Assembly: GCF_044704955.1 (NCBI RefSeq)
Contig: NC_091987.1
Coordinates: 26,412,001-26,476,000 of the forward strand
DNA length: 64,000 nucleotides
Direction: 5' to 3'
Source of the DNA: Pristiophorus japonicus
Lineage: Eukaryota
The position numbers and the translations under genes were made by a program. The notes beneath the pieces are model-generated. The model ran no database searches and had not been told where the DNA came from. It worked only from the letters and a program-made list of their open reading frames with translations. Shown here in pieces: positions 25,420 to 39,380 of the stretch (position 1 is its first letter; every line of letters starts with the position of its first letter).

Positions 25420-26615
25420 CATAAGAACATAAGAATTAGGAACTGGAGTAGGCCACCAACCCCATCGAGCCTGCTCCGCCACTCAACAAGATCATGGCTG
25501 ATCTGGCCGTGGACTCAGCTCCACTTACCCGGCCACTCCCCATAACCCTTAATTCCCTTATTGGTTAAAAATCTATCTATCTGTGATTTGAATACATTCA
25601 ATGAGCTAGCCTCAACTGCTTCCCTGAGCAGAGAATTCCACAGATTCACAACCCTCTGGGAGAAGAAATTCCTTCTCAACTCGGTTTTAAATTGGCTCCC
25701 CCGTATTTTGAGGCTGTGCCCCCTAGTTCTAGTCTCCCCAACCAGTGGAAACAACCTCTCTGCCTCTATTTTGTCTATCCCTTTCATTAAATGTTTCTAT
25801 AAGATCACCCCTCATCCTTCTGAACTCCAACGAATAAAGACCCAGTCTACTCAATCTATCATCATAAGATAACCCCCTCATCTCCTAGTGAATCTGCCTA
25901 GTGAATCGTCTCTAAACCCCTCCAAAGCTAGTATATCCTTGCTTAAGTAAGGTGACAAAAACTGCACGCAGTACTCCAGGTGCAGCCTCACCAATACCCT
26001 GTGCAGTTGCAGCAGGACCTCCCTGCTTTTGTACTCCATCCCTCTCGCAATGAAGGCCAACATTCCATTCGCCTTCCTGATTACCTGCTGCACCTGCAAA
26101 CTAACTTTTTGGGATTCATGCACAAGGATCCCCCAGATCGGGGGGCACGGTTTAATGTTTTTCTGTTAACTCCTAAAAGAGTTTCATGCACAAGGATCCT
26201 AAAAGAGTTTCATGCACAAGGACTCCCAGGTCCCTCTGCACTGCAGCATGTTGTAATTTCTCCCCATTCAAATAATATTCCCTTTTACTGTTTGTTTTTC
26301 CAAGGTGGATGACATCACATTTTCCGACATTTTCCGACATTGTAGTCCATCTGCCAAACCTTAGCCCATTCGCTTAACCTATCTAAATCTCTTTGCAGCC
26401 TCTCTGTGTCCTCTACACAACCCGCTTTCCCACTAATCTTTGTGCCATCTGCAAATTTTGTTACACTACACTCTGTCCGCTCTTCCAGGTCATCTATGTA
26501 TATTGTAAACAGTTGTAGTCCCAGCACCAATCCCTGTGGCACACCACTAACCACCGATTTCCAACCCGAAAAGGACCCATTTATCCCGACTCTCTGCTTA
26601 CTGTTAGCCAGCCTA
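25420..26615 (-). mobile_element. CR1 LINE 3' portion ((ATAAGAAC)n-tail subfamily) with an internal insertion at 26129-26208
   Basis: RT motifs in ORFs 25515-26755; tail at 25420. Confidence 0.85.
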
Positions 26616-33120: not shown

Positions 33121-35056
33121 GGTTTATGTCGGGCCCCTCCATCTCCCTGAGTCACTGCGCAAACTCCAGCCGCAGTAATACACGGCCGACTGATCCGCCC
33201 GCAGGCGGGAGGACTTCAGGTTCAACTCGTTGCTATTCGGTCGTTCGGCGGTAAAAACTGTCCACCGTCCCTTCTGCAGTTACGCTTTTTGCAACTAGGG
33301 ACATAAACATCAAATGCGGCTCCTTCCCCGGGTCCTGCCTGCACCAGTACATTTGAGGGCTACTGGTGCCCTTCACGTCACAATAGATTTGCACTCCGTG
33401 TCTGGGCAATCTGGACACAGCCCCGGGAATCTGGCTGATGGTCTCTGAGTTAACGTCTGGGAAAGAGACGGGGAGAGGAGGAGGTCAGTAAACAGGGACA
33501 ATCGGGAAATGCACCGGGATAGAATCGAAGTATGGAAAGACAGAAAGACAGAAAGATAGAAAGAAAGGAAGGAAAGAAAGAAAGTGTGATAAAGGTTAGT
33601 GACAAGAATTAATCTTTGAAAAACTCCCTTACATAAGAACATAAGAATTAGGAACAGGAGTAGGCCATCTAGCCCTGGAGCCTGCTCCGCCACTCAACAA
33701 GATCATGGCTGATCTGGCCACTTACCCGCCCGCTCCCCATAACCCTTAATTCCCTTATTGGTTAAAAATCTATCTATCTGTGATTTGAATACATTCAATG
33801 AGCTAGCCTCAACTGCTTCCTTGGGCAGAGAATTCCACAGATTCACAACCCTCTAGGAGAAGAAATTCCTTCTCAACTCGGTTTTAAATTGGCTCCCCCG
33901 TACTTTGAGGCTGTGCTCCCTAGTTCTAGTCTCCCGACCAGTGGAAACAGCCTCTCTGCCTCTATCTTGTCTATCCCTTCCATTATTTTAAATGCTTCTA
34001 TGAGATCACCCCTCATCCTTCTGAACTCCAACGAGAAAAGACCCAGACTACTCAATCTATCATCATAAGTTAACCCCCTCATCTCCGGAATCAGCCTAGT
34101 GAATCGTTCTGTACCACTCCAAAGCTAGTATATCCTTCCTTAAGTAAGGTGACAAAAACTGCATGCAGTACTCCAGGTGCGGCCTCACCAATACCCTGTA
34201 CAGTTGCAGCAGGACCGCCCTGCTTTTGTACTCCATCCCTCTCACAATGAAGGCCAACATTCCATTCGCCTTCCTGATTATCTGCTGCATCTGCAAACTA
34301 ACTTTTTGGGATTCATGCACAAGGACCCCCAGGTCCCTCTGCACCGCAGCATGTTGTAATTTCTCCCCATTGAAATAATATTCCCTTTTACTGTTTTTTT
34401 TCCAAGGTGGATGACCTCACATTTTCTGACATTGTATTCCATCTGCCAAACCTTAGCCCATTCGCTTAACCTATTTAATCTCTTTGCAGCTTCTCTGTGT
34501 CCTCTACACAACCCGCTTTCCCACTAATCTTTGTGTCATCTGCAAATTTTGTTACACTACACTCTGTCCCCTCTTCCAGGTCATCTATGTATTCTGTAAA
34601 CAGTTGTGGTCCCAGCACCAATCCCTGTGGCACACCACTAACCACCGATTTCTAACCTAAAAAGGACCCATTTATCCCGACTCTCTGCTTTATGTTAGTT
34701 AGCCAATTTTCTATCCCTGCTAATACATTACCTCTGACTCCGCGTACCTTTATCTTCTGCGGTAACCTTTTGTGTGGCACCTTATTGAATGCCTTTTGGA
34801 AATCCAAATACACAACATCCATTGGTACACCTCTATCCACCATGCTCGTTATATCCTCAAAGAATTCCAGTAAATTAGTTAAACGTGATTTCCCCTTCAT
34901 GATTCCATGTTGCGTCTGCTTCCTGTCTCGATGTCCCGCTATTTCTTCCTTAAAGATAACTTCAAGCATTTTCCCCACTACAGATGTTAAACTAACCGGC
35001 CTATAGTTACCTTCCTTACATTGAAACATGATCAACAGACCCAGTAACTGCTGCAT
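33121..35056 (-). pseudogene. TRBV: TCR V pseudogene V7 (paralog of V8): RSS 33121-33159, V exon 33160-33456, leader 35020-35056
   Basis: 1-nt insertion frameshift near 33255; WY changed to WC; heptamer CGCAGTG; leader MQQLLGLLIMFQ displaced by a 1.4-kb CR1. Confidence 0.85.
33632..35013 (-). mobile_element. CR1 LINE inserted at the V7 leader splice donor
   Basis: RT ORFs; CCTTACAT at both 33627-33634 and 35014-35021. Confidence 0.85.
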
Positions 35057-37838: not shown

Positions 37839-38337
37839 TCATCTTGAACCATGTTCCGGGCACTGTTGTGTTACTTTGTCCTAGAGCGTCCTCTACTGTA
37901 CCTTTGGACAATGTCAGTGTTTGAAAAAAGTATTTTACTTGGATACCTTCTTTATATATTTCGTTCTTTTTTTCACTAGCATTCAGCCGTTCTATCTTTC
38001 AATCTTTTCTCTACCTTTCCTTCATTCTCTTTTGTTTCCTGTTTGCATTCTTTCTTTCATTTTTTCGTTGTCTTTATTTCGCTTTTGATTCATTTATTTC
38101 CCTCTTTATTCCTTTCTATCTTTTATTCTTCCTATCTTCCTTCCTTTCTATCGATTCTCTACACACTGTAATATAAAACACGTTGTTAATCTTTAGCGGC
38201 CTCTGTCTCATCACCCCTTAGCCTTCTCTTTTTTAGACAAATCAGCCCGGCCTGCTCAGGATTTCCTGTTCGTTTGAACCTCTCAATTCTGGTGTCATGC
38301 TTGGTAATCTTTATTTGCACCTTCTCCAGTGACTCTA

Positions 38338-39380
38338 CATAAGAACATAAGAATTAGGAACTGGAGTAGGCCATCTAGCCCCTCGAGCCTGCTCAGCCAT
38401 TCAAGAAGATCATGGCTGAAATGGCCATGGACTCAGCTCCTCTTGCCCGCCCGCTCCCCATAACCCTTTATTCCCTTACTGGATAAAAATCTATCTATCT
38501 GTGATTTGAATACATTCAATGAGCTAGCCTCAACTGCTTCCTTGGGCAGAGAATTCCACAGATTCACAACCCTCTGGGAGAAGAAATTCCATCTCAACTC
38601 GGTTTTAAATTGGCTCCCCCGTATTTTGAGGCTGTGCCCCCTAGTTCTAGTCTCCCCGACCAGTGGAAACCACCTCTCTGCCTCTATCTTGTCTATTCCT
38701 TTCATTATTTTACTTGTTTCTATAAGATCACCCCTCATCCTTCTGAACTCCAACGAGTAAAGACCCAGTCTACTCAATCTATCACCATAAGGTAACCCCC
38801 CATCTCCGGAATCAGCCTAGTGAATCGTTCTGTACCCACTCCAAAGCTAGTATATCCTTCCTTAAGTAAGGTGATCAAAACTGCACGCAGTACTCCAGGT
38901 GCTGCCTCACCAATACCCTATACAGTTGCAGAAGGACCTCCCTGCTTTTGTACGCCATCCCTCTCGCAATGAAGGCCAACATTCGATTTGCCTTCCTAAT
39001 TACCTGCTGCACCTGCAAACTAACTGTTTGGATTCATTGGCTCGTTGCTCTAGGAGTATGATTGTTGCTTTGGGATTGTTACTTGAAATTTGCGTAAGGT
39101 CCAGGGTTCAAATCCTGCACGAGCCCTTAATTTGCAGCGAATTTTGAATTTGCGTCGAACTTTTCTCTAAAAGAGTTTCATGCACAAGGACCCCCAGGTC
39201 CCTCTGCACCGCAGCATGTTGTAATTTCTCCCCATTTAAATAATATTCCCTTTTACTGTTTTTTTTCCCAAGGTGGATGACCTCACATTTTCCAACATTA
39301 TATTCCATCTGCCAAACCTTCGCTCATTCGGTTAACCTATCTAAATCTCATTGCAGCCTCTCTGTGTCCTCTACACAACA
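38338..39380 (-). mobile_element. CR1 LINE 3' portion carrying a tRNA-containing insertion
   Basis: (ATAAGAAC) tail at 38338; ORF2 C-terminal motifs; absent from the paralogous unit at about 32990. Confidence 0.85.
39039..39126 (+). tRNA. tRNA-Pro(TGG) pseudogene with a 16-nt intron (39075-39090)
   Basis: GGCTCGTTGcTCTAGGaGTATGATT...CTT-TGG-G[intron]TGCG..AGGTCCaGGGTTCAAATCCtGcACGAGCCC closely matches the eukaryotic tRNA-Pro sequence; several stem mismatches. Confidence 0.8.

Follow-up and report, generated by a model that had tools for sequence, protein, structure and literature searches.

Introduction

In animals, the tRNA genes described as having introns are solely those for Tyr-GUA, Ile-UAU, Leu-CAA, and Arg-UCU, and intron-dependent modifications have been invoked to explain why these introns persist (PMC12168002). 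According to reviews, the features that mark a substrate of the TSEN splicing enzyme are intron position, intron length, and an anticodon-intron pair (PMC10485636, PMC4090602), with a generic tRNA intron length of 15 to 30 nt (PMC10485636). Across all eukaryotes, UCG, AGG, and UGG rank 8th to 10th by intron share, a placing that conveys order only and comes from the supplement of one cited paper. According to the Squalomix preprint, shark genomes abound in tRNA loci, including ones that contain introns. Small RNAs can also be copied into DNA together with LINE sequence: U6/LINE chimeras have been found with several LINE clades, and human pre-tRNA retropseudogenes made by L1 are cited in the same work (PMC4476161). 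Serial end-to-end jumping by a non-LTR reverse transcriptase has been documented in vitro (PMC8594491), and some Tx1 families are known to insert into other transposons (PMC4494074). In the literature searched, which was judged mostly from listings and covered few subscription papers, no report of shark introns in Pro or Arg-UCG tRNAs came up and none on a Tx1 element that targets CR1, and PMC7954030, PMC13343379, and PMC8450103 added nothing on prior knowledge.

Here, we analyze a 64,000-nt stretch of the Pristiophorus japonicus genome (contig NC_091987.1, positions 26,412,001 to 26,476,000; hereafter the window), in which an initial annotation made from the sequence alone had read an insert within a LINE as a copy of an unspliced, intron-containing tRNA-Pro precursor. 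It had offered three sources for such a copy, namely intron-bearing tRNA-Pro genes in this lineage, a tRNA-derived SINE, or a foreign organism.

Results

The insert, a one-off chimeric retrocopy, consists of an inactive DNA copy of a tRNA-Pro precursor that had not been spliced, joined to a Tx1 3' end (Table 1). Every coordinate previously given for the 139-nt insert (39038-39176), flanked by TTCAT and beginning 1 nt ahead of the tRNA-Pro, was reproduced, and the sequence likewise bears out the 16 extra nucleotides directly after base 37, the A at their third-last position, the T at base 32, and the absence of CCA. The T-run-containing trailer spans 39127-39164, and the last 12 nt (39165-39176), which had not been told apart from it, are the Tx1 3' end. 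T4 runs start at 39142 and 39161 within the trailer, and homology between the window copy and its source genes stops exactly at the second, with the relatives L002-L010 diverging right after it. The copy is decayed, differing from an intronless Pro gene of the same genome at 9 of 72 exon bases, while its intron shares 15 of 16 bases with the commonest intron of what we term Pro family 1. ARAGORN called no tRNA in the window, Rfam returned no match for the insert at its gathering score and, for the window copy, only a tRNA match of E=4.5 at a loose E-value, and the fold of the copy was without significance (z -1.75).

Table 1. Positions of the insert, its host LINE, and related target sites within the window
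Feature	Position	Strand	Remark
Host CR1-type LINE left of insert, 3' portion (ORF2 end, 3' UTR)	38336..39037	-	91-94% identity to other window copies
Left copy of 5-bp target-site duplication, TTCAT	39033..39037	+	
Single base T, leader (T at -1 in source genes) or untemplated	39038..39038	+	
5' exon of tRNA-Pro(TGG), last base is base 37	39039..39074	+	
16-nt intron at 37/38, -3 base A opposite U32	39075..39090	+	
3' exon of tRNA-Pro, without CCA	39091..39126	+	
38-nt 3' trailer of source gene, stopping exactly at second T4 run (likely Pol III terminator)	39127..39164	+	common to relatives L002-L010
Final 12 nt of CR1-targeting Tx1 non-LTR retrotransposon	39165..39176	+	same 12 nt close the 7,168-nt element in L065
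Right copy of target-site duplication, TTCAT	39177..39181	+	
Host CR1-type LINE right of insert	39177..39379	-	94% identity to empty copy 34312-34512
Empty CR1 target site, pre-insertion sequence	34309..34329	+	aligns across 139-nt gap
Same target used again, Tx1 remnants in another CR1 copy	26115..26222	+	

The host LINE, presumably a CR1 as the initial annotation had labeled it, has an ORF2 translation on the minus strand on both sides of the insertion site. It is 91-94% identical to the other copies in the window and has a median identity of 93% to 72 copies in the fetched loci. Within the reused target, a 5'-truncated Tx1 3' end of 54 nt from a variant subfamily (26129-26182) and a second, tail-only Tx1 insertion of 12 nt (26197-26208) are each followed by duplicated target. 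Other insertions at this CR1 site have target duplications of about 2 to 15 bp.

The Tx1 family occupies this one site in CR1 ORF2, antisense to CR1. Its tail plus the target motif forms 4,266 exact junctions genome-wide, compared to 0 for a control, and the first 30 of these are mostly the 3' end of one long element, together with 4 consisting of the tail only and 1 carrying 5S rRNA. Tail-only insertions measure 10-12 nt. When Tx1 3' ends were sampled blind to the downstream sequence (the first 30 of 3,112), the target motif followed in 25. As the RNA may read into the target, the 3' terminus of the element can be placed only to within a few bases. A full-length element of 7,168 nt (L065) encodes an ORF1 of 699 aa and an ORF2 of 1,299 aa, the latter with Pfam endonuclease (PF03372), RT (PF00078), and zf-RVT (PF13966) domains. 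Its best named full-length match is the Xenopus Tx1 ORF2 (UniRef YTX2_XENLA; 49% identity over 1,296 aa), and protein fragments have 71% and 67% identity to shark and ray records. Judged by its predicted protein, the vehicle is a Tx1-clade element whose ORF2 is nearest to Tx1 among named elements. We also observed internally deleted copies in which ~700 nt of the Tx1 5' end is joined to the 3' part (L064, L066, and L067), possibly a non-autonomous derivative.

A search of the 5.9-Gb genome with the insert as query returned 1,055 candidates, 40 of which were scored. The window alone aligned over the whole query, and the other 39 stopped in the trailer. All 29 relatives inspected carry the 16-nt insert, and their flanks agree both 5' and 3' of the gene, which marks them as gene units rather than dispersed repeats. 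The nearest genes among the fetched loci differ from the window copy at 12 of 126 bases and have three exon changes in common with it; the origin of the captured RNA was therefore a subfamily that is partly degenerate. Stem-breaking changes occur in this subfamily, and the exact source gene was not found among the fetched loci (40 of the 1,055 candidates scored).

How common such genes are was assessed with a motif of canonical Pro exon ends (TGG, CGG, or AGG) separated by a free gap of 0-30 nt. Of its 599 genome matches, 9 were gap-free and 590 had an insert; these numbers, like those for Arg below, are exact-motif counts that include retrocopies and pseudogenes. The gap-free matches comprise 3 AGG, 1 CGG, and 5 TGG, one of them resembling a retrocopy, and in the first 100 of the 599 matches listed, the other 91 have 16 or 17 nt and are TGG, CGG, AGG, and one GGG. 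The genome search for source and copy number, which had been proposed as a check, thus located hundreds of intron-bearing tRNA-Pro genes, and both the reading as an unspliced pre-tRNA copy and the existence of such genes in this lineage stand. Many lie in 3.1-kb tandem arrays, and others are in mixed, partly decayed tRNA clusters. The fetched loci hold 66 distinct Pro gene contexts, 10 without an insert and 56 with 16 nt at 37/38, which excludes a chance insertion. The exons have at most one mismatch in 18 of these 56 (9 AGG, 5 CGG, and 4 TGG) and 2-12 mismatches in the remaining 38.

The Pro introns fall into two families. Between four good copies chosen for comparison, the introns disagree at 11-12 of their 16 bases and the flanks at 30-34 of 40, compared to 0-1 of 72 exon bases, and the sole exon difference is the anticodon. 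After gapped alignment, the two families were nevertheless found to be related (p=0.011, 1,000 column permutations); the intron was thus likely gained once and diverged afterwards. The -3 base opposite U32 is A in all but one of 18 distinct Pro introns, the exception having G. When folded, a family-1 anticodon arm (L200) forms the U32:A(-3) pair and leaves a 3-nt bulge where the 3' splice site lies; the minimum-energy folds of the family-2 Pro and Arg arms did not cleanly reproduce an anticodon-intron helix. Intact intronless genes are present for all three Pro anticodons as well as for Arg-TCG. As a separate observation, the intronless Pro genes L202 (G000:C12), L203 (G000:C11), and L117 (G000:C6) sit in small clusters with unique flanks and, unlike the array genes, have a strong T-run terminator right after the gene. 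ARAGORN called intact intron-bearing Pro genes Pro(GGG) when run without an intron search and often Phe(AAA) or Leu(TAA) when run with one.

In the arrays L196-L198, the Pro gene is paired with a tRNA-Arg(TCG) gene that also bears an insert at 37/38. The corresponding Arg-TCG intron motif has 740 genome matches, and one intronless gene was found (L214). Among the matches listed, the insert is 16-17 nt long and the -3 base opposite C32 is G in 95 of 99 (scored by eye), but in only 12 of 17 distinct introns in the fetched loci. Most intron-bearing Arg copies have A37 and A73, compared to G37 and G73 in the intronless gene. A common origin of the Pro and Arg-TCG introns was not supported, as their likeness was without significance (p=0.06 and 0.24, 1,000 column permutations). 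Arg-TCT, for which 32 of 32 matches bear an intron, likewise has G at -3; it was considered as donor of the Arg-TCG intron and rejected, its introns being unlike the latter by eye. Intron-bearing Tyr genes also occur in this genome, and the Tyr intron was rejected as a relative of the array introns (p 0.10-0.29). For Lys-TTT, which served as a control, the first 100 of 328 matches were all intronless and mostly from one array, so tandem tRNA arrays in this genome are not all intron-bearing. This tRNA-Lys(TTT) array has a 1.2-kb unit and at least 89 units (G000:C3:83453-218272).

A T-run followed by the Tx1 tail, as in the window, has 131 genome matches. The 100 matches listed represent 86 distinct sites (14 overlaps), of which 73 were examined; the other 13 are the window's own, 9 with a T-run like that of the CR1 flank, and 3 repeats of a 3' UTR variant. 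In this set, which was selected for T-runs (in the unselected sample, 1 of 30 had cargo), 38 junctions carry a B-box or 5S cargo, 4 a variant of the element, and 10 something else; the remaining 21 hold little or nothing. The tRNA precursors among the cargoes, identified by ARAGORN and by eye, are Glu, Ser, Asp, Ile, Leu, Val, Lys, Met, Sec, Tyr, and Arg, and they are accompanied by vault RNA and by what we presume to be SINE-like RNAs. Several single insertions are chains of 2-3 Pol III RNAs (L175, L181, L192, L168, L161, L091, and L204), with combinations such as Lys, SINE-like RNA, and intron-bearing Arg; Met and Tyr; Val and Leu; 5S and Asp; or a tRNA end and vault RNA. All 6 full-length captured Tyr pre-tRNAs retain their intron, and an unspliced window copy is therefore expected and is no argument against splicing. 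Dispersed intron-bearing Arg copies are joined to Tx1 sequence or to the Tx1 target in 10 of 10 cases. Five dispersed intron-bearing Pro precursors (L116, L118, L119, L120, and L135) are instead fused to CR1-type sequence without a Tx1 tail, which suggests that CR1 also makes pre-tRNA chimeras.

One insertion holds a captured selenocysteine pre-tRNA complete with leader and trailer (L078), and the Squalomix preprint describes numerous tRNA-Sec copies in sharks. Small inserts in L073, L162, and L148 are inverted target copies located before the tail, which suggests fold-back copying at the nick. The insert in L093 has an inverted repeat of tail/target sequence, and part of it appears to us to resemble the 5' end of U2 snRNA; U2 genes are the target of other Tx1 families.

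Several features bear upon whether the inserts might be removed by splicing. A single intron lies between bases 37 and 38 in 56 of 56 Pro contexts, in the window copy, and in Arg-TCG; its 16-nt length in all 56 Pro contexts falls within the TSEN-type range of 15-30 nt; and a proximal anticodon-intron pair can be drawn in both isotypes, U:A in Pro and mostly C:G in Arg. The mature tRNA body upon which a ruler mechanism relies is preserved with 0-1 mismatch in 18 of the 56 Pro members, compared to 9 differences in 72 bases for the window copy. The 16-nt insert at 37/38 is likely to be removed by the ordinary tRNA splicing enzyme. Against splicing, most copies are degenerate, and with intact intronless genes present, the arrays may be dispensable. 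The A at -3 in Pro may simply reflect shared descent in an A/T-rich intron, and the intronless DNA matches (9 for Pro and 1 for Arg) include no spliced array-type copy. Further points against it are the G at -3 in only 12 of 17 distinct Arg introns, the unclean folds of the family-2 and Arg arms, the stem-breaking changes in the subfamily nearest to the window copy, and the A37 of most intron-bearing Arg copies. Judging from its exons and genomic setting, the intron-bearing Pro family is native to this genome, and the shift in isotype is the surprising part of the finding.

Discussion

We consider it probable that the insert was made by Tx1 from a native intron-bearing Pro pre-tRNA and that the intron is likely spliced in the family from which this precursor came. 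The starting point is what the genome counts establish, which is that most Pro and Arg-TCG gene copies carry the insert. Since their retrocopies are heritable, the intron-bearing genes would have served as Pol III templates in cells of the germ line or early embryo. The Tx1 endonuclease would then nick the CR1 site and reverse transcription would begin at the 3' end of the Tx1 RNA. After ~12 nt, the reverse transcriptase presumably jumped end-to-end onto the U-run of a nascent pre-tRNA, and second-strand cleavage 5 bp away would have produced the target duplication. Intact family members may meanwhile be spliced by TSEN and RtcB to yield normal tRNA-Pro and tRNA-Arg(UCG). The arrangement of the insert is that of a chimeric retrocopy, in which one target duplication encloses a small RNA and, 3' of it in the same orientation, the truncated end of a LINE, and the homology that stops at T4 is what copying from the natural 3' end of the RNA, its U-run, would leave.

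The chimera could also have been formed as RNA, with the intron reading kept, if RtcB ligated the pre-tRNA to a fragment of Tx1 RNA before reverse transcription. Such a reaction has a precedent in U6 RNA, whose 2',3'-cyclic phosphate end is joined to L1 RNA by RtcB (PMC6789731). The joint in the window is end-to-end at a U-run, as in U6/L1, and the same DNA structure is expected from ligation as from a template jump. However, nascent Pol III transcripts end in 3'-OH and are not RtcB substrates, while the cargoes seen here are varied Pol III RNAs that end at terminator T-runs and include chains of 2-3 RNAs. The 10-12 nt tail-only insertions further suggest that the reverse transcriptase is released early from its own RNA, and overall we regard ligation as unlikely. 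We give slightly less credence, again a low one, to the proposal that the intron arrays are non-functional tRNA-derived repeats that are transcribed and never spliced, with the few intronless genes supplying all tRNA-Pro and tRNA-Arg(UCG). This proposal draws upon the 38 of 56 copies with two or more exon mismatches, the intact intronless genes, the ability of tandem arrays to homogenize without selection, and the lack of any spliced array-type retrocopy among the intronless matches. It does not readily account for exons that stay identical, also at bases that lie beyond the A and B boxes, between families whose introns have diverged and whose flanks cannot be aligned, nor for two isotypes having inserts of 16 nt at exactly 37/38, nor for a -3 base that tracks base 32.

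The two remaining sources that had been proposed for the insert did not survive the genome search. A tRNA head, a LINE-derived 3' end, and a target duplication together constitute the architecture of a SINE, and SINEU in crocodilians is mobilized by target-specific Tx1 (PMC4494074), so membership in a tRNA-Pro-derived SINE family mobilized by Tx1 had some appeal. Yet, this composite occurs only once: the window is the 1 of 40 scored hits that covers the whole insert, and the other 39 end in the trailer and share gene flanks on both the 5' and 3' sides. The same Pro cargo was found at 0 of 73 other T-run junctions examined, and the second T4 precedes the tail, such that a transcript of the insert would likely lose the tail. 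We therefore judge the SINE interpretation highly improbable. The likelihood of contamination or of a foreign source, such as a fungus, is close to negligible. Pro introns are common in yeasts, where tRNA-Pro UGG is an example (PMC4090602), and they are not listed for humans; nonetheless, the best relatives have the same exon sequence as the host's intronless Pro genes, which refutes a foreign origin, and hundreds of copies reside on chromosome-scale contigs amid host tRNA clusters and repeats.

With Tx1 capture of a native precursor as the preferred account, a broader picture may be entertained, albeit tentatively and with somewhat more doubt than confidence. Cartilaginous fishes may have acquired new spliceable introns in all three Pro isoacceptors and in Arg(UCG), resulting in a two-tier supply in which array genes would serve the oocyte and early embryo and intronless genes the soma. 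Proline and CGA decoding in the germ line would then be splicing-dependent, and Tx1 insertions would constitute a fossil library of the germ-line Pol III transcriptome together with its start and stop sites. Pro and Arg-UCG intron copies that exist beside intronless genes, with identical exons in the case of Pro, offer a natural paired test of intron gain, array spread, and function. The ARAGORN miscalls indicate that automatic annotation may hide the intron-bearing Pro family. Tx1 chimeras map precursor ends without RNA data, and they display, as a tRNA head placed upon a LINE tail, the raw step from which SINEs are believed to originate.

In their form, the introns described here resemble the metazoan introns processed by TSEN and RtcB (PMC12530127, PMC12168002, PMC10485636), as both have one short intron at 37/38, a proximal pair, and a normal tRNA body. 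They differ in isotype, since the metazoan set comprises Tyr-GUA, Ile-UAU, Leu-CAA, and, in humans, Arg-UCU, whereas the shark arrays comprise Pro (TGG, CGG, and AGG) and Arg-TCG, for which splicing is predicted. They also differ in scale, with intron-bearing genes outnumbering intronless genes by about 65:1 (Pro) and 740:1 (Arg) by motif count and occurring in arrays, and in that intron-bearing and intronless Pro genes with identical exons coexist. The text of the Squalomix preprint presents its intron-containing loci without isotype, intron position, pairing, or intronless counterpart, which its figure or supplements may provide. Similar to the U6/LINE chimeras (PMC4476161, PMC6789731), the shark chimeras combine, within one duplication, a small Pol III RNA that has a terminal U-run with a truncated LINE located 3' of it. 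The U6/LINE switch has been described as largely restricted to U6/U6atac (PMC4476161), whereas the shark Tx1 captures vault RNA, 5S, and numerous pre-tRNAs at one fixed site, in chains and often when no more than 10-12 nt of its own RNA has been copied. As for the element itself, it shares with Xenopus Tx1L and crocodilian Tx1-Mar (PMC4494074) two ORFs, an APE endonuclease with RT, and insertion into another transposable element. The targets of the known elements are a piggyBac, Mariner, Harbinger, or LTR element (PMC4494074), compared to a site in CR1 ORF2 for the shark Tx1, and while crocodilian SINEU is an snRNA-headed SINE family (PMC4494074), the cargoes of the shark Tx1 are one-off Pol III precursors.
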